From assembly GCA_023267195.1 (NCBI GenBank), contig JAHFNT010000005.1, positions 14,875-78,874 on the forward strand: a DNA stretch of 64,000 nucleotides, in the 5' to 3' direction. Below the pieces are notes generated by a model. It did no database searches. It was not told the DNA's origin and worked only from the letters and a program-made list of their open reading frames with translations. This document shows, in pieces, positions 8,501-59,995 of this stretch (positions are counted from its first letter, which is position 1; the number at the start of each line of letters is the position of its first letter). Both the position numbers and the translations under genes were made by a program. The stretch is from Candidatus Nomurabacteria bacterium (GTDB lineage: Bacteria > Patescibacteriota > Minisyncoccia > Phycocordibacterales > UBA9973).

Positions 8501-8728
8501 TCGGCCACGGTTTGAGATGTAAGCTTCAACGCCTATAATAGGTTTGACGCCAGCCTTTTTTGCCAGTTTATAGAATTCTATAGCGCCGTACATATTGCCA
8601 TGATCTGTGATAGCTATAGCTGGCATGCCAAATTTCTTGGCCAAATCCACTAAATCTTCAAGCTTTGAAAGCCCGTCCAAGAGGGAATAGTGCGAATGTG
8701 TATGTAGGTGGACAAAACCCTTTTCCAT
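5522..8728 (-). CDS. dnaE: DNA polymerase III alpha subunit
   Basis: [35 protein letters not shown]-terminal OB fold. Confidence 0.97.
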
Positions 8729-8755
8729 TTTTTTATAATAGCATATAATAGACCT
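8729..8755. promoter_or_regulatory. 27-bp divergent promoter region dnaE/gap
   Basis: + strand TATAAT 8744-8749, 6 nt before gap ATG 8756; - strand TGcTATTAT, 6 nt before dnaE ATG. Confidence 0.65.
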
Positions 8756-9808
8756 ATGAAAAAAATACGAGTTGGGATAAATGGTTTCGGCAGAATTGGT
8801 AGAGCTTTTTTAAAAGTTGCTTGGGATAGACCAGAAGTGGAAGTGGTTGCTGTAAATGATTTGGGCGATGTCGCCAACATGGCGTATCTTTTAAAATACG
8901 ACACGGTGTACCGAGAATGGAAACATGATATCAAAGTTGAGGGCGACAGTTTAGTTATTGATGCAAGAGAAGACAGAAAAGTAAAAGTTTTAGCGCAAAA
9001 AGATCCTGCGACGCTGCCATGGAAAGATTTGGGAGTGGATGTCGTCGTAGAATCGACTGGACTTTTTACCAGTTATGATAAAGCAAAAGTGCATTTGGAT
9101 GCTGGGGCAAAGAAAGTGGTGATTTCGGCGCCAGAAAAAGGCGGAGACCCTTCGACAAGCTCAGGGCAAGCGGTTCATGGGGAAACTATTTTGCTTGGCG
9201 TGAATGAAGAAAAATTTGGCACTTGCGATCTTACTTCCAATGCTTCTTGTACGACGAATGCGGCTTCGCCTTTGATCGCTATTCTCAATGAAGCTTTAGG
9301 AGTAGAAAAAGCTATTTTAAATACAGTGCATGGCTATACGGCTTCGCAAGGAATTGTCGATGGACCAAATAAAAAAGATTTTCGGGAAGGTCGCGCCGCA
9401 GCGCAAAATATTGTCCCTTCTTCGACTGGTGCAGCGATCGCCGTGACGAAAGCTTTTCCCGAGCTCGAAGGACTTTTTGATGGTATTTCCATCCGCGTGC
9501 CAGTAGTTGCTGGGTCAATTGTAGACGTTACTTTTATATCAAAAAAAGAAACGACCGCCAAAGAAGTGAATTCTATACTCCAAAAAGCTTCTCAAGATTC
9601 CAGATGGAATAAAATTTTTGCCGTGACCGAAGAGCCTTTAGTTTCTGGTGATATTTTGGGAAGTAGTTATGGTTCAATCGCTGACCTCAAAATGACTCGC
9701 GTCGTCGGCGGCAATCTCGTAAAAGTGATGGGCTGGTACGACAACGAAATGGGGTATACCTATACTCTCGTGGATCATGTAATCAAGACGGGGGAAACTA
9801 TAAAATAA
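8756..9808 (+). CDS. gap: Glyceraldehyde-3-phosphate dehydrogenase (type I)
   Basis: [22 protein letters not shown]; start moved to MKKIRVG. Confidence 0.97.
9146..9170 (+). repeat. In-frame hairpin element in gap (DPSTSSGQ)
   Basis: CCCT-TCG-acaag-CTC-AGGG-CAAG. Confidence 0.8.
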
Positions 9809-9817
9809 ATTAAAATT

Positions 9818-10126
9818 ATGCAAAAAAGATATTGGTTGCGAGGTGGAATAATTGCATTAATTATTTATGCTGTTGTCACAGTTATATTGGTTCCTTTTAG
9901 CACTTTAGGTAAAGAGTGCTCTGTTTTTTGTTTGACCTATTGGTCTATCCCTTCATTTATTGGCTCAATTATTATTTCTTTCCCAATTAAAATACTTACC
10001 GGATCTACTTTTTTCATGCGCGGTTCAAATGTCTTTTTCGGCGCTATCTATTTTTATTTTATTATTGGTATGGTTATCGGTTGGGTGTATGGGAAAATTA
10101 AAAGAAAAAACAATATTAACATTTAA
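9818..10126 (+). CDS. Small membrane protein, unknown function
   Basis: 102 aa, about 3 hydrophobic segments, CSVFC motif. Confidence 0.6.
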   Translation: MQKRYWLRGGIIALIIYAVVTVILVPFSTLGKECSVFCLTYWSIPSFIGSIIISFPIKILTGSTFFMRGSNVFFGAIYFYFIIGMVIGWVYGKIKRKNNINI

Positions 10127-10131
10127 AAAAA

Positions 10132-11112
10132 TTATTTTTCTAATTCCGGCAAGACTTTAAAATACTCGTCTATGTAGGGGAACATAGTGTCGCAAGCGAC
10201 GAAGACAACATTCGTGTTCTTTTTTAACTTCTTTTCTTTTTTTAGTTTGGCCAAAGTTTCTAAAATACCAGCGAGTTGCATGCCGGTCGAAGGGCCGACG
10301 AAAAGGCCTTCGCGGATAAGTTTCAAACTCGTTTCGAAAGCTGGCTCAGTAGCTACTGGGACTTCTTTATCAACTACTTTCTGCCAAGGGAAGAAAAGCT
10401 TTTTCACCGCATCTTCTCCTCGCGAGCCGGGAATCGAGGAGCCAGTTTTTATGGATGTGCCAATTATTAAAATATTTGGAATTTTCTTTTTTAAATAAGA
10501 CCCACTTCCAGTAATCGTTCCACCTGTGCCCAAGCTCATGCAGAAAATATTAATTTTCCTTCCAAATTGTCCATATAGCTCTTTGCCGATTACTTCACTT
10601 GAAGCTTTCGGGCTATTCGGATTTATGTATTGATGCAAATTTTTCCAGCCTGCTTGCTTGCCCATCTGGGTTGCATCCCAAATTCCGCCTATTTCACTTT
10701 TTACATCCGGTGAAGCAGGCCCGTCGGAAATAATGAGATCTGTACCCATCAATTTTAAAATATTTTGTTTATTTTTTGGAACATCCGGGGTGATGATCGC
10801 ATGCATATTGGGGATGCCGAAATGTCGAGCTAGTATCGTCAAAGACAGGACAGTGTTTCCGGAAGAATATTCCACCAAGTGCTTTATTTTTTTTAATTCA
10901 TTTTTTGGAATGCCATCGAGCATATACCAAGCAGGCAGAGATTTGATATTGGCGAGAGGCACGCTTTGCATCAGTTTTATATAAATATGTATGCTGTCTT
11001 TGAGATATGGATTTAGGCGAAGAGGAAGCTCTACGACAGGCGAAGGGCCCATAGAACCGGGTTTTAGATAATCAAATATTGCTTTTTCGCCCTTGAATGT
11101 ATTTTTTTTCAT
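10132..11112 (-). CDS. Cysteine synthase/cystathionine beta-synthase-like PLP enzyme (fold type II)
   Basis: NIKSLPA (PLP Lys), EYSSGNT, HQYINP, GTGGT, VGPSTG. Confidence 0.85.
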   Translation of the reverse strand: MKKNTFKGEKAIFDYLKPGSMGPSPVVELPLRLNPYLKDSIHIYIKLMQSVPLANIKSLPAWYMLDGIPKNELKKIKHLVEYSSGNTVLSLTILARHFGIPNMHAIITPDVPKNKQNILKLMGTDLIISDGPASPDVKSEIGGIWDATQMGKQAGWKNLHQYINPNSPKASSEVIGKELYGQFGRKINIFCMSLGTGGTITGSGSYLKKKIPNILIIGTSIKTGSSIPGSRGEDAVKKLFFPWQKVVDKEVPVATEPAFETSLKLIREGLFVGPSTGMQLAGILETLAKLKKEKKLKKNTNVVFVACDTMFPYIDEYFKVLPELEK

Positions 11113-11897
11113 ATATTTATTTCGCCCTCAAACACACATACAGCCGGACCAGTCAGCCAGATATTTTGATAAACACCTTTTCCAGCTTTTTCAAATTCCA
11201 CAGTCAAATCTCCACCCGGCATTTTTATATGACAAACATTTTCTTTTAAAATCCCAAGATGATGTGAAGCGATTGCCACAGAACAAGCTCCTGTTCCGCA
11301 GGCAAGTGTTTCATCTTCTACACCTCGTTCATAAGTGCGTACATAAAAAATGCCGTTTTTATTTTCTACATAATTCACATTTACCCCTTTGGGGTTTTGG
11401 CCATTGTCGCGAATTTTGCGCGCTTCAATGCAGATAGGGAAGCTTTCTATATTTACGACAAATTGAATATGGTGCGGGGTAGTACCTGAACACAAAAAAG
11501 GTAAGCCATTTTTTTCTCCAATTTCATTTACATTCTGCATTTTTAACTTTATTAAACCACTATCTAATATTTCTGCTTCATGCTCTCCATCTACCGCGAT
11601 GAATTTTACTTTTTTGGGATTTTTGATAATTTTTAAAACACTATTAGCAAAATGTACGATACACCTCCCACCGTTTCCGCACATGCTTCCCATGCTTCCA
11701 TCGTTGTTGATGAAGACCATTCTGAAATCAAAATTTCTCTCTTTTTCTAAAAGTATTACCCCGTCTGCCCCTATCCCAAAGCGTCGATGGCATAAATATT
11801 TGATATTTTCTTGATCGTTTACGGAAAATACTTTCTCTCGATTGTCTATCATTATGAAATCATTTCCGGCGCCATGGTATTTGTAAAATTTGAGCAT
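11109..11897 (-). CDS. dapF: Diaminopimelate epimerase family protein
   Basis: HGAGNDF, GIGADG, MCGNG, ERGVEDETLACGTG (both catalytic Cys). Confidence 0.93.
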   Translation of the reverse strand: MLKFYKYHGAGNDFIMIDNREKVFSVNDQENIKYLCHRRFGIGADGVILLEKERNFDFRMVFINNDGSMGSMCGNGGRCIVHFANSVLKIIKNPKKVKFIAVDGEHEAEILDSGLIKLKMQNVNEIGEKNGLPFLCSGTTPHHIQFVVNIESFPICIEARKIRDNGQNPKGVNVNYVENKNGIFYVRTYERGVEDETLACGTGACSVAIASHHLGILKENVCHIKMPGGDLTVEFEKAGKGVYQNIWLTGPAVCVFEGEINI

Positions 11898-11925
11898 TCT
11901 TGGATTATATACTATAATTTAATAT
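11898..11925. promoter_or_regulatory. 28-bp divergent promoter region dapF/rpiB
   Basis: - strand TATAAT (11904-11909), 6 nt from dapF ATG; + strand TATAAT (11913-11918), 7 nt from rpiB ATG. Confidence 0.65.
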
Positions 11926-12426
11926 ATGAAAATCTATATTGGCTCTGATCACACTGGGTATGAATTAAAAGAAAAATTAAAAAAATATTTAAGTGAACTT
12001 GAGCTTGGATATGAGGTGGTGGATAAGGGTGCCTTTAAATATGATGCTGATGATGATTACCCAGATTTTATCGAGCCGGTGGCGGAAGCTGTCGCTAGTG
12101 AAGAGGGGAGCCTCGGTGTCATTCTCGGCGGCTCAGGGCAAGGAGAAGCCATGTGCGCAAATAGAGTAAGGGGTGCACGAGCAGCAGTGTTTTATAGCGA
12201 AGCTTTTCCTAAAGAAGCTATTGATATAAATGGTGGTAAAAGCGAGGATTCTTTTGAAATTGTAAAGCTTGCAAGAATACATAATAACGCAAATATTTTA
12301 TCTTTAAGCGTCAGATTTTTATCCGAAGATCAAATAAAATTTGCTGTTGAACTTTTTCTTAAAACTCCATTTGGAAACGAAGAGAGGCATGTACGTCGCA
12401 TTAATAAACTAGAGCCTAGTGCCTAA
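11926..12426 (+). CDS. rpiB: Ribose-5-phosphate isomerase B
   Basis: IGSDHTG, DDYPD, GGSGQG, ARIHNNAN, RHVRRI. Confidence 0.93.
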   Translation: MKIYIGSDHTGYELKEKLKKYLSELELGYEVVDKGAFKYDADDDYPDFIEPVAEAVASEEGSLGVILGGSGQGEAMCANRVRGARAAVFYSEAFPKEAIDINGGKSEDSFEIVKLARIHNNANILSLSVRFLSEDQIKFAVELFLKTPFGNEERHVRRINKLEPSA

Positions 12427-19744: not shown

Positions 19745-20077
19745 ATGGAAATAATTTCAACAAAAGAAAATAAAAGTTATGGAATAAAATTTGAAGCCAA
19801 AGAAGACAAGAAGCTTTTTGGGTGGGCGTATCTTTATATTATGTATAACGATTTGCACGAAGAGCCATTTGGGTTTCTGGAAAATGTTTTTGTAAAGGAA
19901 GAACATCGGGGCAAGGGAATAGGCAAAAAGTTGATTGAAAATGTAATTAACGAAGCTAAACGTCATAATTGCTATAAGTTGGTTGGCACTAGCCGCTATG
20001 AGCGGTCGGAAGTGCATGCTATGTATATTAAAATTGGTTTTAAGGACTACGGAAAAGAATTTAGAATGGATTTTTAA
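19745..20077 (+). CDS. GNAT acetyltransferase (possibly glucosamine-6-P N-acetyltransferase-like)
   Basis: ENVFVKEEHRGKGIG acetyl-CoA motif, CYKL; directly after glmS. Confidence 0.8.
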   Translation: MEIISTKENKSYGIKFEAKEDKKLFGWAYLYIMYNDLHEEPFGFLENVFVKEEHRGKGIGKKLIENVINEAKRHNCYKLVGTSRYERSEVHAMYIKIGFKDYGKEFRMDF

Positions 20078-20093
20078 TATAATAAATATATCT

Positions 20094-21044
20094 ATGCAAG
20101 AAAAAATTTTAGTTATCGGGGCGTGCGGACAAATTGGGGTAGAGCTTACGGCAACCTTGCGTAAAAAATATGGGAGTGAGAATATAATTGCTTCAGATGT
20201 TCGCGAAGAAAATGCGCTTCTTGTGGGTACTGGACCGTTTGTTATTTTAGATGCGATGAATAAGGGAACGATTCAGACACTCATAAAAAAAGAAAAAATT
20301 ACCATAGTATATTTGCTAGCAGCGCTCCTGTCTGCGACTGGTGAAAAAAATCCAAAACTTTGCTGGGAACTCAATATGGAGAGTTTACAAAATGTTTTAG
20401 ACATTGGTGTAGAAGAAAAGTTAAAAATATTTTGGCCTTCCTCTATTGCTGTTTTTGGCACCACAACCCCAAGAGAAAATACCCCACAAAAGACCGTTAT
20501 TGAGCCGACGACAATGTATGGGGTGACTAAATATGCAGGAGAGCTTTTGTGCCAGTATTATAAAAAAAGATTTGGTCTCGATGTTAGGAGTGTGCGTTAT
20601 CCCGGACTTATTAGTTGGAAGTCCGAGCCAGGCGGGGGAACTACAGACTACGCGGTAGATATATTTTATGGAGCGATTAGAGAGGGTAAATATACTAGCT
20701 TTCTTTCCGAAAATACATATTTGCCGATGATGTATATGGATGATGCCATCCGGGCGACACTGGAATTAATGACTGCACCGAAAGAAAAGTTAAAAAATAG
20801 CCTGGCATATAACTTATCCGCCATTAGTTTTTCTCCTAAGGAAATTGCCGAAGCCATAAAAAAGCGAATACCAAATTTTGAAATTAGTTATGAGCCAGAT
20901 TTTCATCAGCCAATTGCGGATAGCTGGCCGAAGAGTATTGATGATAGTGTAGCTAGAGCAGACTGGGGCTGGCACCATGAGTATGATTTAGAAAAAATGG
21001 TGAGTGTGATGCTAGAGAATTTAAAAATGAAATTGGTAAAATAA
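20094..21044 (+). CDS. tdh: L-threonine 3-dehydrogenase (SDR/epimerase type)
   Basis: IGACGQIG, LLSATGE, PSSIAVFG, YGVTK, PGGGTTDYAV; upstream of kbl. Confidence 0.88.
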   Translation: MQEKILVIGACGQIGVELTATLRKKYGSENIIASDVREENALLVGTGPFVILDAMNKGTIQTLIKKEKITIVYLLAALLSATGEKNPKLCWELNMESLQNVLDIGVEEKLKIFWPSSIAVFGTTTPRENTPQKTVIEPTTMYGVTKYAGELLCQYYKKRFGLDVRSVRYPGLISWKSEPGGGTTDYAVDIFYGAIREGKYTSFLSENTYLPMMYMDDAIRATLELMTAPKEKLKNSLAYNLSAISFSPKEIAEAIKKRIPNFEISYEPDFHQPIADSWPKSIDDSVARADWGWHHEYDLEKMVSVMLENLKMKLVK

Positions 21045-21047
21045 TTT

Positions 21048-22274
21048 ATGTATTCAAAAAAACTTATAGATTCTATTGAAAAGGAATTTGAAACGCTGAA
21101 AAGCGCTGGGAAATTTAAAGTGGAGAGGGAATTGGATGGAGCTCAGGGGGCAGAGGTGCGGATTGCGGGCAGACAAGTCCTGATGTTCGCCTCAAATAAT
21201 TATTTAGGTCTGGCTAATCATCCGGAAATTGTAAAAGCGGGGAAGGAGGCCATAGAGCAATACGGCTTCGGCTTGTCATCCGTCAGGTTTATTTCCGGCA
21301 CAGAAACGATTCACAAAATTTTAGAAAAAAAGTTAGCAGAATTTTTGGGCGTGGAGGATAGTATCTTGTATTCCACTAATTTCATGTCTAATCTAGGATT
21401 TTTTGCAACGATTACCAATGAAACTTTCGGCGACAGCGCTCCATACCTAGACGCGATTTATAGCGATGAGCTAAATCATGCTAGCATCATAGATGCTTTC
21501 AAGCTCTGCAAAAAAGAAAACGTTGTAAAAAGAATTTATTCTCATGGTGATGTTGCTTTACTGGAAAAAATGCTGGAAGAAGATAAAGAAAAAAATTATC
21601 GTTTTAAAATAATTGTAACAGATGGAGTTTTTTCTATGGAAGGATATCTGGCGCAACTGCCGGAACTAAAAAAGTTGGCAGAAAAATATGAGGCTATGCT
21701 TTTTGTGGATGATGCGCATGCCATCGGGGTGCTTGGGAAGACTGGCGCCGGAACGCCGGAACATTTTAATTTGCATGGGCAGGTGGATGTCCTTTCGGGG
21801 ACCTTCGGCAAAGCGCTAGGCGGAGCTGTGGGCGGATATATTGCCGGCAAGAAAAAAATAATAGAACTGCTTCGCCAAAAATCCCGCACGTATCTTTTTT
21901 CAAATTCTGTGCCTCCGTCTGTTGTCATCGCATCTATAAAGGCACTTGATTTATTAAAAGAAAAAAGAGAACTTTTGGACAAAGTAAGAGAAAATTCTGA
22001 ATACTTTAGAGCTGGAGCGCGAAAATTAGGTTTTAAAGTTTTAGAAGGCATTCATCCGATTGTGCCAGTAATGCTGGGTGATGCCGCTAAAACGCAAGAA
22101 ATTAGTCAGAAACTTTTAGCCAAAGGATTATTCGTTGTTGGATTATGGTTTCCGGTGGTGCCAGAAGGTGCTGCCCGCTTGCGTTTCCAAATTTCTGCCG
22201 CGCACACACATGAACAAATTGACCAAGCGCTCGAAATTTTATCAGAGGTAGGCAAAGAAATGAAAATAATTTAA
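21048..22274 (+). CDS. kbl: 2-amino-3-ketobutyrate CoA ligase (glycine C-acetyltransferase)
   Basis: SNNYLGL, SVRFISGT, DELNHASIID, DGVFSMEG, GTFGKALGG. Confidence 0.92.
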   Translation: MYSKKLIDSIEKEFETLKSAGKFKVERELDGAQGAEVRIAGRQVLMFASNNYLGLANHPEIVKAGKEAIEQYGFGLSSVRFISGTETIHKILEKKLAEFLGVEDSILYSTNFMSNLGFFATITNETFGDSAPYLDAIYSDELNHASIIDAFKLCKKENVVKRIYSHGDVALLEKMLEEDKEKNYRFKIIVTDGVFSMEGYLAQLPELKKLAEKYEAMLFVDDAHAIGVLGKTGAGTPEHFNLHGQVDVLSGTFGKALGGAVGGYIAGKKKIIELLRQKSRTYLFSNSVPPSVVIASIKALDLLKEKRELLDKVRENSEYFRAGARKLGFKVLEGIHPIVPVMLGDAAKTQEISQKLLAKGLFVVGLWFPVVPEGAARLRFQISAAHTHEQIDQALEILSEVGKEMKII

Positions 22275-37277: not shown

Positions 37278-38096
37278 ATGTCTTTAAGTATCGGGATTGT
37301 TGGTTTGCCGAACGTGGGAAAATCCACGCTTTTTAATGCGTTGACCAAAAAAGGCGTACCGGCGGAAAATTATCCTTTTTGCACCATTGATCCATCGGTT
37401 GGGATTGTGCCGGTGCCAGACGAAAGACTCACGAAACTAACAGAGATTTCTAAATCTAAAAAAACAATCCCTGCGGTAGTTGAATTTGTGGATATCGCGG
37501 GGTTGGTGAAGGGTGCATCACTAGGCGCGGGTCTTGGAAATAAATTTCTTTCACACATTCGCGAAGTAGATGCGATTGTAGAAGTGGTGCGAATTTTTGA
37601 AGACAAAGATATGATTCACGTGCATGAGAAGATCGATCCGCTTTTTGATATTGAAGTTATAAATTTTGAACTAGAGCAGGCGGGGATTAAAAAACCGACA
37701 CTGTACGTATTAAATACTTCTGCTGTAGCTGATAACATAAAAAAAGATTTTGTATCAAAACTCCCTAGTCCTTATATTGAAGTCGATCCGATTTTTGGTA
37801 CTGGTCTAGATAATTTAATTAAAGCTGGCTACGATCTACTTAATTTAATTACCTTTTTTACGACCGGAGAAGACGAATCGCGCGCTTGGACGACAGTTCG
37901 TGGAGCGACAGCGCCGACAGCCGGAAAATCCATTCATACAGACTTTAGAGACAAATTCATTCGTGCAGAAGTGGTGGCATATGAAAAACTTATAGAAGCA
38001 GGCAGTTTTGCCAAGGCAAGAGAAAAGGGTTGGGTGCGGACAGAGGGTAAAGAATATATTGTACAAGACGGCGACGTAATAGAATTTTTGATATGA
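37278..38096 (+). CDS. ychF: YchF/Ola1 ATPase (short form)
   Basis: [33 protein letters not shown] domain YIVQDGD. Confidence 0.93.
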
Positions 38097-40795
38097 AATT
38101 TAAAACTTTGTTTAAATCAAGTGTTTTTTTTATCAAAAAATTAGTATTTTTTAGTTTTTTTATTGTTGCTAATTTATTTTTCTTTGTATCATACGTGCAG
38201 GCAAGTTCACTCTCTAGTACTCCAGCTGATTATTGGGTGACTAATGGAACAGTTAGTGCTATTGCATTAGGGTCTGATGGCACAACTTATATTGGCGGAA
38301 GTTTTACTAGCGTTGGCTTAAATGCCGGTTACGGTGCTGCTATTGATACAATCTCTGCTGTTCCTGATCTTAATTTTCCGAATGTTAATGGAATAATTCA
38401 TGCGGTTGTCTCAGATGGTTCTGGCGGTTGGTATATAGGGGGTATTTTTACCCAAGTTGGTAGTGTTTCGAGAAATAATATTGCCCATATTCTCTCTGAC
38501 AAATCAGTAGATCTTAATTGGAATCCGAATGCTAGTAATTTGGCCGGTAATGCTACTGTTTTTGCTCTTGCCGTAAGTGGTACGACAGTTTATGTTGGTG
38601 GAAGTTTTACTACCATCGGCGGCCAAACAAGAAACCGCATTGCAGCGATCGATTCAGATGGTTTAGCGACGAGTTGGGATCCGAACGCGAATGCAACTGT
38701 AAATACTCTTGCCGTAAGTGGTACGACAGTTTATGTTGGTGGAAGTTTTACTACCATCGGCGGCCAAACAAGAAACCGCATCGCAGCGATCGATTCAGAC
38801 GGTTTAGCGACGAGTTGGGATCCGAACGCTGACAGTATTGTATATGTGCTTACTGCGAATGGTACAACAATCTACGCCGGGGGAGCCTTTACCACTATTG
38901 GTGGCCAAACCAGAAATCATATCGCAGCAATCGATTCGGACGGTCTAGCGACAAACTGGGATCCAAATGCAAATAGCGATGTACGTTCACTTGTAATAAA
39001 TGGTACAACAATCTACGCCGGGGGAGCCTTTACTACTATCGGTGGCCAAACCAGAAATCATATCGCAGCGATCGATTCAGACGGCCTGGCGACAAGCTGG
39101 AATCCAAATGCTAACTCTACTGTTAATACTCTTGCCGTCAGTGGCAGCATAGTTTACGCCGGAGGATATTTTATTACCATCGGTGGCCAAACTAGAAATC
39201 ATATCGCAGCGATCGATTCAGACGGTTTAGCTACGAGCTGGGATCCAAATACGAATGATGTTGTTCATAAAATTGCTGTAAGTGGAAACGTAGTCTATGC
39301 AGGGGGTGCTTTTGTTACCATAGGTGGTCAAACAAGAAACCGCATCGCGGCTATTGGTCCTGATGGTCTCATTACCAGTTGGAATCCAAATGCTAACTCT
39401 ACTGTTAATACTCTTGCCGTCAGTGGCAGCATAGTTTACGCCGGAGGAGATTTTACCACTATCGGCGGTCAAACTAGAAATAGTATCGCAGCGATCGATT
39501 CAGACGGCCTGGCGACAAGCTGGAATCCAAATGCTAACTCTACTGTTAATACTCTTGCCGTCAGTGGCAGCATAGTTTACGCCGGAGGATATTTTAGAAC
39601 CATCGGCGGTCAAGCAAGAAACCGTATCGCAGCGATCGATTCAGACGGCCTGGCGACAAGCTGGAATCCAAATGCCAATAGTACTATTTGGGCTCTTGCT
39701 GTAAACGGGAACGTAGTTTACACCGGGGGAGATTTTACTTCTATCGGCGGTCAAGCAAGAAACCGTATCGCAGCGATCGATTCAGACGGTTTAGCTACGA
39801 GCTGGGATCCAAATGCAAGCAATACTATTTATGCTCTTGTGGTAGATAATTCTACCGTTTACACCGGGGGAGATTTTACTTCTATCGGCGGTGAAACAAG
39901 ACGTTATGTCGCGGCTCTTGATTTAAATACTGGCCTAGCCACTTCCTGGAACCCGAACGCTAGTACTAGTATTTATGCTTTAGCTTTTAGTGGTACGGCC
40001 GTTTACGCCGGGGGAGATTTTACTTCTATCGGCGGTGAAACAAGACGTTATGTCGCGGCTCTTGATTTAAATACTGGCCTAGCCACTTCCTGGAACCCGA
40101 ACGCTGGAAGTAGTTCCGTTTGGGCTCTTGCCGCTAACGATATTGCGGTTTATGTAGGTGGGACTTTTAACGTAATTAGTGGAAATTTCCGACCAAAATT
40201 TGCCAAATTTAATAAATCTTTTAATCTTTCATATGCCCCAGGTTCCAATGGTTCAATCACTGGTTCTGTTTTACAAACAGTAAATGGCGGGGATGATGGT
40301 ACAACAGTAACAGCAGTTCCAAATTCCGGTTACCATTTCTCCGGTTGGAGTGATGGATTTCTGGTCGCTTCCAGAACTGATACAAATATTTCTAGTGACA
40401 TTACAATTACTGCAAATTTTGAAGTTGATGCATCTGTTGTTAATATATACCAAAGCAGTGGTCTCAGTGTTCCATTAATCAGTCGCCCACTTGTCACCGT
40501 TTGCGAGTCAGGACATAAATTCAATATTAAAACCGGTTTACTTTGCCCTTCTTATAAAGAAAAACCCCAGTATACATCTTTACCTTCTAGGTGTTTTGTT
40601 ACTAAGCCTATGAAGTTGGGGAGCAGGGGCAAAGATGTAAAATGTTTGCAAACTAATCTAAAAGTTGTTCCGATTACCAGTTTTTTTGGGCAAAAAACAA
40701 AATCAGCCGTTATTGCTTTTCAAAAATTACACAAACTTGTCCCAGATGGAATTGTGGGGAAGAAAACAAGAGCAGTATTAAATAATAATTTATGA
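38093..40795 (+). CDS. Secreted repeat beta-propeller protein with InlB-B-like repeat and peptidoglycan-binding domain
   Basis: Signal peptide; about 47-aa W[ND]PN..VYAGGxF..RNxIAAID repeats; [15 protein letters not shown]; [20 protein letters not shown]. Confidence 0.85.
38519..40103 (+). repeat. Coding tandem repeats, about 141-nt unit
   Basis: 12 W[ND]PN units with long nucleotide-identical blocks (e.g. ggaatccaaatgctaactctactgttaatactcttgccgtcagtggcagcatagtttacgccggagga three times). Confidence 0.9.
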
Positions 40796-54045: not shown

Positions 54046-55062
54046 ATGAAAATTGCATTTTTTGAAGTTTCAGTGCCTAAAGTAGACGAGCCCTTGGTTT
54101 TACAGGCGCTCGCTGGCAACCAAGTTTATTTTTATGAAGAGAAATTAAATGAAAGTACTCTGGAGAAAGCAAAAGAGGCTGATATTATTTCAGTCTTTAT
54201 AAATTCAACAATTGATAACAAGGTAATTGATGCCTTGCCTAATTTGAAATTCATAGCTGCTCGCTCTACTGGGTTTGACCACATTGATTGCGAGTATGCT
54301 AAAGCTAAAGGGATAAAAGTTTCTAACGTTTCTGCTTATGGCTCTCATACAGTGGCGGAGTTTGCATTGGGATTAATTTTAACTTTTGCCAGAAATATAA
54401 AGTTAAATGCTGATAATTATATTAAAGAATCTGCCAACTTTGATTACTCTAAAGCGATGGCAGGATTTGATTTATGTGGCAAGACTTTGGGAGTTATCGG
54501 TACTGGCAAGATTGGCAAGAATTTAATTAAAATAGCCAAGGGGCTTGAGATGAAAATTGTGGCACATGATTTATTCCCAGATTTAGATTTTGCCAGAGAA
54601 AATAACTTTGAGTACAAAAGCCTGAAGGAAGTTATTTCTGTTTCCGATATTGTTTCTTTGCATACTCCATACAGCAAGGAAAATCATCACCTAATAAACC
54701 AAGAAATTATTTCTAAAATGAAAAAAGGCGTTTACCTTATAAACACAGCGCGAGGGGAGCTTGTAGACACTACGGCTCTAGTCTCTGGGTTGAGAAATGG
54801 TACTATTGCTGGTTTTGGTGCTGATGTGATTGAAGCGGAAAAACAATTTAAAAATGAAGCTCAATTATCTTCTGCTCAAAAATTAACAGAAGAAGAAAAG
54901 GTAATAATTAATTTAAATCACGAACTTATGAAAATGCCTAACGTAGTAATTACTCCACATATAGCCTTTTTTACCCATGAAGCAGTGGCAGTAATTTTAC
55001 AAACAACAATTGATAACATCAGGGCCTTTATTTCCAGCAATCCTATTAATTTAGTAAATTAG
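54046..55062 (+). CDS. D-isomer-specific 2-hydroxyacid dehydrogenase
   Basis: RSTGFDHID, GTGKIG, INTARG, TPHIAF. Confidence 0.92.
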   Translation: MKIAFFEVSVPKVDEPLVLQALAGNQVYFYEEKLNESTLEKAKEADIISVFINSTIDNKVIDALPNLKFIAARSTGFDHIDCEYAKAKGIKVSNVSAYGSHTVAEFALGLILTFARNIKLNADNYIKESANFDYSKAMAGFDLCGKTLGVIGTGKIGKNLIKIAKGLEMKIVAHDLFPDLDFARENNFEYKSLKEVISVSDIVSLHTPYSKENHHLINQEIISKMKKGVYLINTARGELVDTTALVSGLRNGTIAGFGADVIEAEKQFKNEAQLSSAQKLTEEEKVIINLNHELMKMPNVVITPHIAFFTHEAVAVILQTTIDNIRAFISSNPINLVN

Positions 55063-55068
55063 AAAGAT

Positions 55069-56358
55069 ATGCAAAAAAGCTTGATTCAGAATTTTGATGA
55101 GTTGGCTGTGACTTCGAATCGCAAGATGGCTCTAGAAATAATGGAGTCTGGGTTAAAAGCTATCAATACCAAAGAAGTTATTTTTAATTCTGTTAAGTTG
55201 ACGGGGAATGTTTTAAATATTGAGGGGCAAAGTTTTGATTTGTCTAAATTTAAAAAGATCAAGATTGTTGGTTTTGGAAAATCTTCCCCAGAAGCCGCGC
55301 TGGCCCTAGAGAATATTTTAGGTGGAAAGATTGACGCTGGGGTAGTAATTGGACTTTCCAAAATAAATTTAAAATATATTGAAACCTTTGTTGGTAGCCA
55401 CCCTCGGCCCAGTGAAGTTAATTTCGAAGCTGGGGAGAAAATATATAAAATCGCCGAGAATGCCACCGAGGATGATTTGGTCATTGTAATTGTTTCCGGA
55501 GGAGGTTCGGCGCTCTTGTGCCATGGTAAAGAGGAGTGCGAAAGCGGAATCAAACTTTATGATTCTTTTTTAAAATCCGGAAAAACAATTGCCGAAATAA
55601 ATACTGTCAGAAAACACCTGTCGTTTTTGAAAGGCGGAGGCTTGGCTAAAATCGCTTACCCGGCCACGATTGTAGCGCTTATTTTTTCAGACATACCCGG
55701 AGATAATTTTGAAAATGTTGCTTCCGGACCGACCTATAAAGATATGACTACGGTGGATGATGCAAATAAAATTATTAGAGAAAATAACCTAGGAGAATTC
55801 AACTTAATTGAAACTCCAAAGGAGGATAAATATTTTGAAAAAGTTCACAATTTTGTTTTAGTTTCCAATCAGACCGCGGTAGAAGCGATGGCGCAAAAAG
55901 CGCAAGAATTTAATTTAGAGACAGACATTATTTCCACCCGATTGTTCGATGAAGCAAGCAGTGTTTTAAAGAAAATATTTTCTTCCAAGCTTTATTTCCA
56001 CAAAGAAAATTCTGTTGTCTTGGCTGCCGGTGAGCCTAGTATTGTGATTTCTCCAAATAGAGGCAAGGGTGGGAGGAATATGCATATGGGGTTATTGGCC
56101 ATAAAGAATAAAACCATTGATGAAAATACTGTTTTTATTTCTTTTGCCTCTGATGGCATGGACAACAGCGATGCGGCTGGAGTTGTCGTGGATAAAATTA
56201 ACATAAAAAATGCAGAAAAACTAAGATTGGATGTAGATGACTATCTGGAGCGTTTTGATTCCTATTCTTTTTTTTCTAAAGCAGGTGGTATAATCAAGAC
56301 TGGCCCTACGGGTGCCAATGTTTCTGATTTAATGATTTTGTTAAAGAAAAAATTATGA
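55069..56358 (+). CDS. Glycerate 2-kinase (MOFRL/DUF4147 type)
   Basis: GFGK, HPRP, SGGGSAL, VRKHLS..KGG, GGRN, SDGMD, TGANVSD. Confidence 0.9.
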   Translation: MQKSLIQNFDELAVTSNRKMALEIMESGLKAINTKEVIFNSVKLTGNVLNIEGQSFDLSKFKKIKIVGFGKSSPEAALALENILGGKIDAGVVIGLSKINLKYIETFVGSHPRPSEVNFEAGEKIYKIAENATEDDLVIVIVSGGGSALLCHGKEECESGIKLYDSFLKSGKTIAEINTVRKHLSFLKGGGLAKIAYPATIVALIFSDIPGDNFENVASGPTYKDMTTVDDANKIIRENNLGEFNLIETPKEDKYFEKVHNFVLVSNQTAVEAMAQKAQEFNLETDIISTRLFDEASSVLKKIFSSKLYFHKENSVVLAAGEPSIVISPNRGKGGRNMHMGLLAIKNKTIDENTVFISFASDGMDNSDAAGVVVDKINIKNAEKLRLDVDDYLERFDSYSFFSKAGGIIKTGPTGANVSDLMILLKKKL

Positions 56359-57578
56359 ACAAGATTACTAAAATCATCGCGGAAGAAATAAAAGATTCAA
56401 GGGGTAATCCGACAATCAAGACCACAGTTTTTTGTGGGGAAAAATTCGCCAGTTTTTCTGTGCCTTCAGGGGCATCTACCGGCGCGCATGAAGCTCATGA
56501 ATTGCGCGATGAAGACGGAAAGGGTGTGAAAATTGCAATAGATAAAGTCAACAATGCCATTGCCCCCTTGCTTCTTGGTCAGGACGTTTTTAATCAAATG
56601 GAAATAGACAGAATGATGATTGAGCTTGATGGAACCTACAATAAAGACAATCTCGGCGCTAATTCTATGGTGGGTGTGAGTATCGCCTGCGCTAAAGTCG
56701 CTGCCATCCTTTCCGGAAAAGAAATTTTTGAATATTTACAGACCCTTGCCCAAATAAAACATTCCCGGAAGGTTCCTTATTTATATATGAATTTAATAAA
56801 TGGAGGCAAACATGCCCACAATAATCTTGTATTTCAAGAATATATGATTGTACCAGACACCGATAATGCAAAGGAGGCAGTAGAAATTGGCATAAAAATT
56901 CAAAATAGTTTAAGGGAAATAATAATCAATGAACTAGGAAGAGAGTCTATTATACTTGGCGACGAAGGGGGTTTTGCGCCAAAAATAAGTGACATAAAAC
57001 AACCTCTCTTTTATCTGAATAAGGCCATAAAAGAAAATCATTTAGAAGGCAGAGTTCGGTTTGCCATGGATGTTGCTTCTTCCTCTTTCTATGGAGGTGA
57101 AACTTATATAATAAATGGTAAAGATACTAAAAAAGAAGAATTGCTGGATTTTTATAATTCATTGGTCAAAGAGTTTGGTCTGTTTTCCATAGAGGATCCG
57201 TTTGATGAAGAGGATTTTGACAGTTTTAAAAAATTAAAAAATGATAACAAAAATCTCTTGGTTGTGGGGGATGACTTAACTGTAACCAATATTTCGCTTC
57301 TGGAAAAGGCAATCAAAAAAGACAGCATCAATGCGATAATCATCAAGCCAAATCAGATAGGTACGCTTTCTGAAACACTCAAAGCTATGCAGTTGGCTCG
57401 AGAGAATGGCGTAGAAATTATTGTCAGTCACAGGAGCGGGGAGACAGATGATGATTTTATTGCAGATCTTGCCTTTGCGTTTAAATGTTTTGGTTTGAAG
57501 GCTGGCGCTCCAGCTAAACCGGAAAGAATGATAAAATATCAAAGGTTGATGCAGATTGCTAGCCGCTCCAGCGCCTAG
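56355..57578 (+). CDS. eno: Enolase
   Basis: DSRGNPT, PSGASTG, GDEGGF, VGDDL, SHRSGET. Confidence 0.96.
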   Translation: MNKITKIIAEEIKDSRGNPTIKTTVFCGEKFASFSVPSGASTGAHEAHELRDEDGKGVKIAIDKVNNAIAPLLLGQDVFNQMEIDRMMIELDGTYNKDNLGANSMVGVSIACAKVAAILSGKEIFEYLQTLAQIKHSRKVPYLYMNLINGGKHAHNNLVFQEYMIVPDTDNAKEAVEIGIKIQNSLREIIINELGRESIILGDEGGFAPKISDIKQPLFYLNKAIKENHLEGRVRFAMDVASSSFYGGETYIINGKDTKKEELLDFYNSLVKEFGLFSIEDPFDEEDFDSFKKLKNDNKNLLVVGDDLTVTNISLLEKAIKKDSINAIIIKPNQIGTLSETLKAMQLARENGVEIIVSHRSGETDDDFIADLAFAFKCFGLKAGAPAKPERMIKYQRLMQIASRSSA

Positions 57579-57586
57579 ACAAATTT

Positions 57587-59995
57587 ATGACAGAAGAAAA
57601 AAATTTTGTTAAGTGGTATAGCGAGGTAGGTATTGCCGACGTTCCTGTCGTGGGGGGTAAAAATGCGGCGCTCGGTGAGATGTATGCAAACCTCGTGCCG
57701 CTTGGAGTAAACATACCAGATGGTTTTGCGTTGACCGCAGATGCCTATAGGCACTTTTTCAAAAGTACTGGTTTAGATGAAAAAATAAAAGAAATTCTGG
57801 CGGATCTTGATACAAGTGACATGCGCAATCTGCAAATTCGAGGCAAGAAAATTCGCAAGGAAATTTTAAAAGCTGATTTACCAGAAGACCTGAAAGATAT
57901 AATCGCGAAGTCTTACGAAGAATTGTGTCAGAAATATGGAAAGGATAGTGATGTGGCGGTGCGCTCCTCAGCTACGGCAGAGGATTTACCTGGTGCCTCT
58001 TTTGCTGGTCAGCAAGAGACTTATCTTAATGTTCATGGTATAGACAATGTTCTTATTGCGACCAAGAAATGCATTGCTTCGCTTTTTACTGATCGTGCTA
58101 TTTCTTATCGTAAAGATAAAGGATTTTCGCATTTTGAGGCGGCTCTTTCGGTAGGCATACAGATTATGGTTCGGTCTGATCTGTCGTCTTCGGGAGTAGC
58201 CTTCACGATTGATACAGAAACTGGTTTTGACAAAGTTATCGTTATCAATGGTATCTATGGTCTCGGGGAGTTTATCGTACAGGGCAAAGTCATTCCAGAT
58301 GAGTTTATGGTTTTTAAGCCGTCACTTGATAATGGCGTCAGCAATCCAATTATCGGTAAAAGTATTGGTCAGAAAAATATTAAATTAGTTTATGCAAAAA
58401 ACGGTACTAAGCAAGAAAAAGTTTCGCCTAGAGATCAGCAGAAATTTTGCCTGACAGACGAAGAGGTTGTGAAGCTGGCGAAATGGTGTTACGAGGTGGA
58501 AAAATATTTCTCGCAAAAGCATGGCCATTATCAACCAATGGATTTGGAGTGGGCAAAAAATGGCAAGACCGGCGAGCTTTTTATTGTGCAAGCTAGGCCC
58601 GAGACAGTTATTTCGTCACTAGATAAAAATATTTTAAAAGAATACAAATTGCAAAAAACGAGCAGAGTTTTAGCTAGCGGAATTGCTGTTGGTTTAAAAA
58701 TTGGCAGTGGCAAGGTTCGCATTTTGCATAACGCTAAAAATATTAATGATTTTCAAAAAGGGGAAGTTTTGGTAACTGAGATCACTGATCCAGACTGGGA
58801 ACCAATTATGAAAATTGCGAGCGCGATCGTGACCGATAAAGGTGGACGTACCTCTCATGCGGCGATCGTTTCCCGCGAATTGGGTATTCCTTGTATCGTA
58901 GGAGCCAATAATGCCACTAAAGCACTCAAAAAAGGGCAGGAGGTTACCGTAGATGCCTCCCTCGGGCAAGTTGGCAATGTATATGAAGGCATTATTCCTT
59001 TTGAAATTATTGAACATCGCCTGGATAAAATACCAAAAGTAGCAACCAAGATTATGGTCAACATCGGTTCTCCCGACGAAGCGTTTAAAAGCCATGCCTT
59101 GCCGGCCGAAGGGGTTGGTTTGGGTAGGCTAGAGTTTATTATCGCTTCGCATGTTCGCTTCCACCCGAATGCGCTGATTGATTATCAAAAGTTAAAGCTT
59201 GGCAAGCAAACTCCATACATCAAAAAATTAATTAAAGAAATTGATAATTTGACGCCTCTATATAAAGACAAAACAGATTTTTATGTGGACCAGCTTGCGC
59301 TTGGTATCGCGAAGGTTGCCGCTACGTTTTACCCACATCCGGTCATTATCCGTTTTTCCGATTTTAAAACCAATGAGTACCGCACTCTCTTGGGTGGGGA
59401 ATTGTACGAGCCCCATGAAGAGAATCCGATGTTGGGTTGGCGCGGGGCATCTAGATATTATGATCCAAAATTCAAAACGGCTTTTGGTCTTGAGTGTAAG
59501 GCGATGCAGAAAGTCCGAACGGAAATGGGTTTTACAAATGTGGTTCCGATGATTCCATTTTGTCGAACTCCCGAGGAAGGTAAAAAGGTAATTGAGACAA
59601 TGAAAGAATTTGGTTTGGATAAAGCGCAAGATAATACTTTGAAGGTTTATGTCATGTGTGAAATTCCTTCAAATATTCTGCTAGCGGATGAATTTTTGGA
59701 GATTTTTGATGGTATGTCTATCGGTTCAAATGATCTGACTCAACTTACACTCGGGCTCGATCGTGATTCTGGCATAGTTACTCATATTGCGAACGAAAAC
59801 AATGGAGCAGTTAAGAAGCTGATCGCAGAGATTATTCACAAGTGCAAAGAAAAAGGGAAGTATATTGGTATTTGTGGGCAGGCGCCTTCGGATTATCCAG
59901 ATTTTGCCAAGTTTTTGGTAAGTGAAGGCATCGAAAGTATTTCCCTCAATCCGGATACAGTTATCAAAATAATTTTGGCACTTTCAAATAAGTAA
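57587..59995 (+). CDS. ppsA: Phosphoenolpyruvate synthase
   Basis: GGKNA, VRSSATAED, GGRTSHAAI, IGSNDL, CGQAPS. Confidence 0.96.
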   Translation: MTEEKNFVKWYSEVGIADVPVVGGKNAALGEMYANLVPLGVNIPDGFALTADAYRHFFKSTGLDEKIKEILADLDTSDMRNLQIRGKKIRKEILKADLPEDLKDIIAKSYEELCQKYGKDSDVAVRSSATAEDLPGASFAGQQETYLNVHGIDNVLIATKKCIASLFTDRAISYRKDKGFSHFEAALSVGIQIMVRSDLSSSGVAFTIDTETGFDKVIVINGIYGLGEFIVQGKVIPDEFMVFKPSLDNGVSNPIIGKSIGQKNIKLVYAKNGTKQEKVSPRDQQKFCLTDEEVVKLAKWCYEVEKYFSQKHGHYQPMDLEWAKNGKTGELFIVQARPETVISSLDKNILKEYKLQKTSRVLASGIAVGLKIGSGKVRILHNAKNINDFQKGEVLVTEITDPDWEPIMKIASAIVTDKGGRTSHAAIVSRELGIPCIVGANNATKALKKGQEVTVDASLGQVGNVYEGIIPFEIIEHRLDKIPKVATKIMVNIGSPDEAFKSHALPAEGVGLGRLEFIIASHVRFHPNALIDYQKLKLGKQTPYIKKLIKEIDNLTPLYKDKTDFYVDQLALGIAKVAATFYPHPVIIRFSDFKTNEYRTLLGGELYEPHEENPMLGWRGASRYYDPKFKTAFGLECKAMQKVRTEMGFTNVVPMIPFCRTPEEGKKVIETMKEFGLDKAQDNTLKVYVMCEIPSNILLADEFLEIFDGMSIGSNDLTQLTLGLDRDSGIVTHIANENNGAVKKLIAEIIHKCKEKGKYIGICGQAPSDYPDFAKFLVSEGIESISLNPDTVIKIILALSNK

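Follow-up and report, generated by a model that had tools for sequence, protein, structure and literature searches.

The 64-kb window analysed here, by which we mean the whole stretch of Candidatus Nomurabacteria DNA, carries a two-gene unit composed of dapF, for diaminopimelate (DAP) epimerase, and a gene for a pyridoxal phosphate (PLP) beta-replacement enzyme. The dapF frame (11109..11897, minus strand; 262 aa) is named from TIGR00652, and the PLP-enzyme frame (10132..11112, minus strand; 326 aa) is assigned from its PALP domain and its PDB and fold matches to the aspergillomarasmine A (AMA) synthase branch, as a short form without the rhodanese domain. The dapF stop and the PLP-enzyme start share a 4-nt ATGA overlap (11109..11112, minus strand; ...AAT ATA TGA AAA), which suggests that the two genes are translationally coupled. 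Since the flanking genes, an open reading frame (ORF) of 102 aa ending at 10126 and rpiB, are opposite in orientation, we treat the pair as a two-gene unit; with both ORFs at these positions on the minus strand, the overlapping pair described by the initial annotation stands. The 102-aa ORF separates the unit from gap (GAPDH; 8708..9808, plus strand; an ORF named from its sequence). Judging from relatives' loci, gap and rpiB (11926..12426, plus strand; family matches) form the opposite edges of a site at which the dap operon, dapF and cysteine-synthase-fold genes recur. Directly 5' of dapF lies a weak sigma-70-like promoter match (TTTTCA-17-TATAAT, 10/12 consensus bases; 11904..11932, minus strand). 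Sites of that quality number 10 in the region and 7.4 +/- 2.8 in shuffles, and promoter, terminator and GC scans of the region gave nothing exceeding chance.

Identity of the two enzymes

Sequence and predicted structure identify the 262-aa protein as a genuine DapF: it passes the equivalog model TIGR00652 (202 bits, cut-off 114.65) and has both catalytic cysteines, C73 and C200 (CGNG, CGTG). Its sequence matches in the PDB are all DapF or DcsC, and the top Foldseek matches of its predicted model (pLDDT 93.6) are DapF: the model reaches E 1e-26 and 27-31% identity with DapF structures, versus E 1e-14 and 16-18% with HisR/CntK. The histidine racemases HisR/CntK were thus rejected, DapF structures ranking about twelve orders of magnitude ahead in E-value, as was a glutamate racemase or the bifunctional Chlamydia type (NF038284 107, below 350), a separate MurI being present (TIGR00067 193, above 146.65). 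With the DapF encoded in the complete dap operon of G207, the protein shares 70% identity (G-numbers label the compared genomes and L-numbers their loci). Its distal site has N64, N173, E190 and R191, together with T140 where most DapF have Asn; the G207 operon enzyme likewise has Thr. In a motif-based mapping onto the Corynebacterium glutamicum distal site (N74, N159, N194, R213), N64, N173 and R191 are kept and Asn159 corresponds to Thr140. According to PMC12039745, the DapF enzymes of Anabaena and Arabidopsis epimerise lanthionine at the rate of DAP, whereas that of Haemophilus influenzae does not, and its authors suggest Gly versus Gln44 (H. influenzae) as the cause. The Anabaena and Arabidopsis enzymes are the top sequence matches of the window DapF, which has Gly at that site (G46), a residue compatible with lanthionine tolerance.

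The 326-aa protein matches PALP (PF00291) only, and it stays below all curated cut-offs of the 19 NCBIfam families that it touches, the best being cysKM (125.6, cut-off 344.15), with cysM at 114.3 (394.2) and cysK at 106 (350.95). A CysK/CysM cysteine synthase was rejected on these wide margins, together with the lack of a serine acetyltransferase match in the genome containing the window (G000), and SbnA on a TIGR03945 score of 96 (cut-off 350) and the lack of SbnB in the two-gene unit. The sequence holds the PLP lysine K57 (NIKSL), an EYSSGNT loop (81-87), GTGGT (195-199) and an invariant R231, which we take to be the arginine that marks O-phosphoserine use. The NIKSLPA motif, previously regarded as atypical, is indeed present around K57; it is the norm of this enzyme family and not a defect. 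By sequence and modelled fold, the nearest solved relative is the fungal AMA synthase: its structures 8H4Q/8H4H are the best PDB sequence matches (187 bits vs 92 for the next), profile comparison gives 267 bits vs 112 for the next, and the predicted model (pLDDT 92.5) fits AMA synthetase with a TM-score of 0.92-0.93, a root-mean-square deviation of 1.6-1.7 A and 33-34% identity, the fold matches listed after it having TM 0.71-0.82. By contrast, 5XEM, presumably FN1220, scores only 56 bits (rank 42 of 114), and on this comparison with the 187 bits to AMA synthase a Fusobacterium-type lanthionine synthase was rejected.

AMA synthase and the Fusarium enzyme Fda4 join O-phosphoserine to amino-acid amines, as described in PMC12751119 and bioRxiv 2025.10.30.685158. 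The window enzyme resembles them in the N-x-K-x-x-P, EYSSG and PG-x-R motifs and in O-phosphoserine as the likely donor. Unlike AMA synthase, it has no C-terminal rhodanese domain (326 vs 525 aa) and its loops are changed (ITPDVP, CDTM, GMQL); unlike both, it is partnered by DapF and not by transport or nonribosomal peptide synthetase genes, those enzymes adding Asp or Ala amines. In a survey of 93 loci of its relatives (not dereplicated), a small ParB-fold serine-kinase-like gene matching SerK, the free serine kinase of archaea (E 3e-6), adjoins six, and O-phosphoserine is therefore the likely donor in those genomes. These six loci recall SerK-CysK of Thermococcus kodakarensis, where a kinase of that fold also goes with a cysteine-synthase-fold enzyme; unlike there, the kinase is about 135 aa (vs 242) and is not found in G000, and the archaeal route has no epimerase.

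In the tree, the window enzyme falls in a short clade that stands apart from the long forms, with a rhodanese domain, found in other Paceibacteria. These long AMA-synthase-like genes lie beside Fur and a CbiA/ParA-type ATPase (L339:5526-10208 in G255; L340-L342 in G085, G027 and G075), the order in G255 being Fur, ATPase, SerK-like gene and synthase, with a ZIP zinc transporter adjoining. From their gene content, such loci are a candidate zincophore cluster in candidate phyla radiation (CPR) bacteria, and the long genes may be the source of the short clade. Four more distant relatives without rhodanese (L335-L338: G327, G458, G594, G478) occur in genomes with an EDP[YF]-type MurE and without dapF; an aspartate decarboxylase is close to three of the four and an F420-ligase-like gene adjoins two (Pfam check in G594 only), and these relatives probably serve a different small-molecule pathway.

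Such relatives raise the question of whether the window pair belongs to a metallophore or another secondary metabolite, an AMA-like synthase working with a DapF-fold racemase as CntK does in staphylopine and DcsC/DcsD in D-cycloserine synthesis. The closest structure is that of AMA synthetase, the long relatives keep company with Fur, a P-loop ATPase and once a ZIP transporter, and DcsC (7VDY) is among the DapF matches; as here, those systems place a DapF-fold racemase beside a biosynthetic enzyme, which in DcsD (PDB 3X43) has the cysteine-synthase fold. However, the short clade has no rhodanese domain, the loci read show no recognisable Fur or metal-transport neighbour, and the two-gene unit has no other cluster genes. 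In addition, DapF proper ranks over DcsC and far over CntK (the E-values given above), the window DapF has its 70% identity to a dap-operon enzyme and, of the two deep DapF clades that we recovered, the second has partner DapFs interleaved with dap-operon enzymes. We thus regard a metallophore pair as very improbable.

Cell-wall genes and the search for a DAP pathway

G000 comprises 648 kb in 7 contigs and is 91% complete; because 9% of markers are missing, its negatives are given as not found rather than absent. Control genomes gave matches for each family searched for without success. Genome-wide searches of G000 gave no match for dapA, dapB, asd, lysC or the ACT-type gene discussed below, and none for hexapeptide-repeat proteins (DapD/CysE); relatives' DapL fragments had no tblastn match to a dapL-like gene. 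Similarly, neither SerK nor SerC was found, the strong matches to SerC being cysteine-desulfurase-like by sequence, and two cysteine-desulfurase-type genes are present. A full DAP pathway elsewhere in the genome was thus not recovered, and the earlier remark that the window has no other dap, lys or cys gene follows from the same searches.

Several candidates for the missing steps were rejected. A PF02784 protein is unlikely to be LysA, arginine-decarboxylase models scoring higher (all below cut-off); its identity to the LysA of a relative's operon is 26%, and G000 has aguA/aguB-like genes. The arginine-decarboxylase-like, aguA-like and aguB-like genes (L079:1054-2442 and L344, all under curated cut-offs) represent a probable putrescine route by sequence. 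A class I aminotransferase ranks with AspC-type models and not as DapL, other dapL and lysA profile matches were discarded since the profiles contained G000's own proteins, and the two amino-acid-kinase matches in G000 are PyrH and ProB.

The wall pathway itself is represented by five Mur-ligase matches at four genes and by MurI, with Alr and Ddl seen by what we presume to be their motifs. MurE has the motif TADNPRSE, of the DNPR type whose significance is taken from PMC3681970; it passes the DAP-ligase model NF001126 (451.9, cut-off 373) and stays below the Lys-ligase model NF010628 (252.5, cut-off 536), so a Lys-specific MurE, which would have spoken against the initial annotation, was not found. 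We compared it in a first sample of 60 genomes of the genus plus G000 (n=61) and 40 genomes from other genera of the order. Within the genus, MurE was read in 58 of the 61 genomes (53 DNPR, 4 DNSR, 1 DNSL), covering all gene states, and the motif is uninformative at this level; in the other genera, EDPY was found in 10 of the 11 read (L127-L166, L097-L126 loci). G042 and G052 carry both DNPR-type and EDPY-type MurE. The window also encodes a 900-aa secreted repeat protein (38093-40795), whose C-terminal segment presumably resembles a peptidoglycan-binding domain.

In some other members of the genus the pathway is intact. Complete DapL-type DAP operons (L080, L081, L173, L287) comprise dapB, dapA, dapL, asd, lysC and dapF; G042 and G207 have lysA as well, and G046 a homoserine-dehydrogenase-like gene. 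The generalisation that CPR bacteria lack amino-acid biosynthesis, on which the initial annotation had drawn, therefore fails for this genus. The window DapF is like that of the DapL-type pathway in passing TIGR00652, in its two catalytic cysteines and in its identity to the G207 enzyme; unlike it, no upstream route for L,L-DAP supply was found.

Distribution across the genus

The main survey covered all 181 genomes of the genus that are at least 85% complete, searched for dapA, dapF and the cysteine-synthase fold, which were found in 26, 66 and 63 genomes, respectively. Score and frame length, and not the dapF state, served to sort the cysteine-synthase-fold genes into AMA-type short (23), CBS-like (18), SbnA-like (18) and four others; sequence checks covered 23/23, 13/18 and 9/18 of the three named types. 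Among the 23 genomes with the AMA-type enzyme, 22 have dapF and none has dapA. Put differently, in the 155 genomes without dapA the enzyme is present in 22 of the 44 with dapF and in 1 of the 111 without it, and it is found in 0/26 dapA genomes. In the 22 genomes with both genes, these are adjacent in 11 (one across a contig end), separated by one gene in four and at different sites in seven, and linkage alone is therefore not enough to explain their co-occurrence. In the locus survey, dapF lies within 3 kb of the enzyme in 32/93 loci, and in 20/41 where at least 1.5 kb is available on both sides. The pairing goes beyond chance; the pair is real and conserved.

With the SbnA-like gene of G205 set aside (it adjoins an SbnB-like gene), no genome is shared among dapA (26), AMA-type (23), CBS-like (18) and SbnA-like (17), a pattern for which naive chance is 1e-8, a value overstated by kinship. 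The count also omits the true CysK of G144, the CBS gene next to a gamma-lyase-like gene in G059, the long form in G027 and the broken gene in G132. None of the 58 enzymes thus falls in the 26 dapA genomes. Counting G205 gives 1/26 vs 58/155 (p 4e-4, kinship ignored), and counting G144, G059 and G205 gives p 0.007 (kinship ignored). The unpublished G059 enters as one of the 26 dapA genomes, as one example of ACT-dapB, with one row where MurE and DapF are compared, and as one excluded CBS gene; no conclusion rests on it. Related genomes are not independent, and all co-occurrence p-values are overstated on this account. The worry is limited, however, because the enzyme partners both deep DapF clades, which alternate on the enzyme tree, because the pair occupies four chromosomal sites, and because a MurE tree of 58 genomes (FastTree, one gene) shows the states scattered, with the four AMA-type genomes not forming one clade. 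The distribution is thus one in which this enzyme replaces the upstream dap genes and dapF is retained.

At a larger scale, the first sample has dapF in 23/61, dapA in 9/61 and the ACT-type gene in 22/61 genomes of the genus, and each in 0/40 over cut-off elsewhere. Among 401 genomes drawn across the class, the short clade appeared only in this family (4/9 vs 0/392). Outside the genus it was seen in the DNPR-MurE genomes G101, G103, G104 and G621, and in G102, where no MurE was found. The sole enzyme genome of the 23 without dapF (G148, L286) has a branch of 0.31 vs 0.11-0.17 for its sisters, with motif changes, and its enzyme is possibly under relaxed selection. As a further observation, in the first sample an aspartate-racemase-like second Asp/Glu racemase (L181-L184: G041, G051, G056, G014) accompanies 4/8 CBS-like genomes vs 4/53 others. 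Speculatively, it could supply D-cysteine, which would explain why the CBS-like type mostly goes without dapF.

The syntenic context provides additional clues. A 218-aa protein (L065:2931-3587), without a Pfam match and grouped by the atlas with ACT-domain and DUF7523 clusters, is a putative regulator on the basis of that grouping. Its gene is divergent from dapB or lysA in dap-operon genomes; elsewhere the divergent partner is a CBS-like, SbnA-like or AMA-type gene, dapF by itself or an aspartokinase remnant. In 27 of the 32 distinct ACT-type genes read, a dap/lys, cysteine-synthase-fold or serine-kinase gene is divergently upstream, in a sample enriched for such loci. In G233 it stands opposite lysC-dapF-serK-enzyme, which looks like a half-way operon, a dap-operon end with new genes appended.

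The same site could also have brought together two genes with unrelated jobs. The enzyme would then be an O-phosphoserine sulfhydrylase making cysteine and DapF a dap-operon remnant epimerising scavenged L,L-DAP, the two meeting because both insert at few tolerant sites under one amino-acid-sensing regulator. In effect, SerK plus CysK yields cysteine in Thermococcus (PMC5120207), SerK-like genes flank both AMA-type and SbnA-like enzymes, 16 of the 44 orphan-dapF genomes are without any cysteine-synthase-fold gene, and other accessory genes (transposase-like and TrpR-like ORFs, labels provisional) occupy the same insertion sites. Redundant cysteine synthesis would also account for the mutual exclusion of the three enzyme types. 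It would predict, however, neither the presence of dapF in 22/23 enzyme genomes, seven of them unlinked, nor the 0/58 in dapA genomes. Furthermore, the CysE, SerC or SerK that would feed cysteine synthesis were not found in G000, and the enzyme falls well short of the CysK and CysM models. Overall, we consider two unrelated jobs unlikely.

A proposed route to meso-lanthionine

We put forward that the pair supplies a stand-in for DAP. The PLP enzyme would convert an activated serine to aminoacrylate and join to it the L-cysteine thiol, so that L,L-lanthionine results. Genomes that encode a serine kinase would use O-phosphoserine as the donor, and G000 probably cysteine itself. DapF would invert one centre, as shown for other DapF enzymes, and the DAP-type MurE of G000 would ligate the resulting meso-lanthionine into the stem peptide in place of meso-DAP. 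The co-occurrence of the genes suggests that the enzyme's product is the DapF substrate; the exclusion of the dap operon, the shared site and the MurE type suggest that this product replaces DAP. That it is lanthionine, made from cysteine, we infer from its being a DAP isostere, obtainable by beta-replacement from common metabolites and accepted, as reported, by DapF and a DAP-type wall pathway. We assign to this route, with L,L-lanthionine made by the PLP enzyme, epimerised by DapF and ligated by MurE, a probability of roughly 0.55, while a DAP stand-in of whatever kind is somewhat safer and rather probable.

Part of this logic has precedents. In Fusobacterium, the lanthionine synthase CysK1/FN1220, of the cysteine-synthase fold, is essential and its loss is rescued by lanthionine (PMC9600241). 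According to PMC11602996, that synthase itself can give the meso form from L-Cys and D-Cys, and the DapF homologue FN1732 is a histidine racemase that turns over histidine about 10,000 times faster than lanthionine and whose knockout is viable. Thus, the Fusobacterium model invoked by the initial annotation holds for the synthase and not for epimerisation by a DapF homologue; likewise, its short route to a DAP stand-in keeps its footing in the unfound DAP pathway and the DAP-type MurE and loses this epimerase precedent. The two systems have in common a cysteine-synthase-fold PLP enzyme, the lack of a detected DAP pathway and the proposed end product. They differ in that the window enzyme comes from another branch and has a true DapF as its near-constant partner, and in that lanthionine was measured there and is predicted here. 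The pair would function like the Fusobacterium lanthionine wall, outside that enzyme family and with a synthase derived from the AMA-synthase branch. The closest model for the two-step logic is Escherichia coli, where DAP auxotrophs are rescued by cysteine thioethers (Richaud et al. 1993, as cited); there, L,L-lanthionine is reported to be epimerised in a dapF-dependent manner and meso-lanthionine to enter the wall. This is, however, a laboratory suppressor with MetB/MetC-type metabolism and not a dedicated natural pair. Fusobacterium is a documented natural lanthionine peptidoglycan, and for a dedicated synthase-plus-DapF route the literature found holds laboratory precedent only; a search whose coverage left out most subscription journals returned no paper describing such a pair.

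Various observations weigh against the lanthionine route. With regard to chemistry, AMA synthase adds amino-acid amines and not thiols, and the window enzyme stands well apart from FN1220. In G000 neither a serine kinase nor SerC or CysE was detected, so the donor is accounted for only if it is cysteine. The glycine site of DapF is non-discriminating, dap-operon DapFs of the genus carrying Gly too, and the DNPR motif cannot separate DAP from lanthionine. With regard to distribution, the first sample with all enzyme types pooled showed no enrichment (7/14 orphan-dapF genomes vs 12/38 without dapF), the dapF association emerging only after the subfamily split in the 181 genomes. The enzyme occurs without dapF in G148, G101, G102 and G045 (78% complete), and dapF is missing from 13/18 CBS-like and 16/17 SbnA-like genomes, so those types cannot follow the same two steps. 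As many as 79 of the 181 genomes carry no gene of this set, and a DNPR-like MurE is still present in every one of the 26 of this kind that were read in the first sample; scavenging or an unseen route is thus evidently enough for them, and a DNPR wall requires neither dapF nor the enzyme. The ACT-type gene is missing from G000, and the orphan-dapF genomes and accessory genes mentioned above add to this side.

As to the source of activated serine, the window has a D-2-hydroxyacid dehydrogenase followed in series by glycerate-kinase-like, enolase-like and PEP-synthase-like genes (54046-59995; the last three named from sequence), from which a promiscuous phosphoserine route is possible. At 19983-22274, glycine C-acetyltransferase (kbl) comes after an NAD-dependent epimerase/dehydrogenase gene, and the two resemble a threonine-to-glycine pair.

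In an alternative scenario the role would be the same and the molecule another: L-cystathionine, with homocysteine as nucleophile and epimerisation to the L-allo form, or a nitrogen-bridged analogue made by AMA-type C-N chemistry. All of the distribution evidence fits any DAP stand-in, the closest structure is that of a C-N-forming enzyme acting twice in series, the serine kinases at 6/93 loci point to an O-phosphoserine donor, and L-allo-cystathionine is able to enter E. coli walls. For the homocysteine version, however, G000 shows no Cys/Met-metabolism PLP enzyme bar a weak cross-match to an aminotransferase; LuxS, SahH, MetE and MetK were not seen by short motifs that we take to be diagnostic, a weak test. 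For the nitrogen-bridged version, a toxin-A-type alpha-amine adduct would, from its structure, be one atom shorter than DAP and have no distal primary amine for cross-linking, and no SbnB-like oxidase for diaminopropionate release was recognised beside the enzyme, where the unlabelled neighbours were read in part. Another molecule in the same role appears to us unlikely. Finally, the pair might run in reverse as thioether salvage, DapF converting scavenged meso-lanthionine to the L,L form and the PLP enzyme cleaving it for cysteine. PLP beta-replacement chemistry can proceed either way, and a reduced genome with two cysteine-consuming desulfurase-type genes could profit from it; DapF, too, is reversible. 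Salvage leaves unexplained why the dap operon is excluded, why the ACT site is shared and why serine kinases are neighbours, and is the least credible of the alternatives.

Returning to the lanthionine route, its wider implications can be drawn only tentatively, at somewhat less than even odds. A Paceibacteria lineage with a DAP-type wall may have repeatedly replaced a six-gene DAP operon in place, under the same regulator, by one of three unrelated cysteine-synthase-fold enzymes, one of them a metallophore synthase without its rhodanese domain, rewired with DapF. Lanthionine, or a so far unobserved nitrogen-bridged DAP mimic, would then be the residue that occurs naturally in the stem in roughly one third of the genus (58/181), with an origin independent of Fusobacterium. 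To the question of how CPR bacteria obtain the diamino acid of their wall, the pair offers an answer that needs a single enzyme and is testable in E. coli, with no culture of the organism required. If true, it would represent a clean non-orthologous displacement, in which an enzyme of secondary metabolism, AMA synthase, was recruited to cell-wall synthesis.

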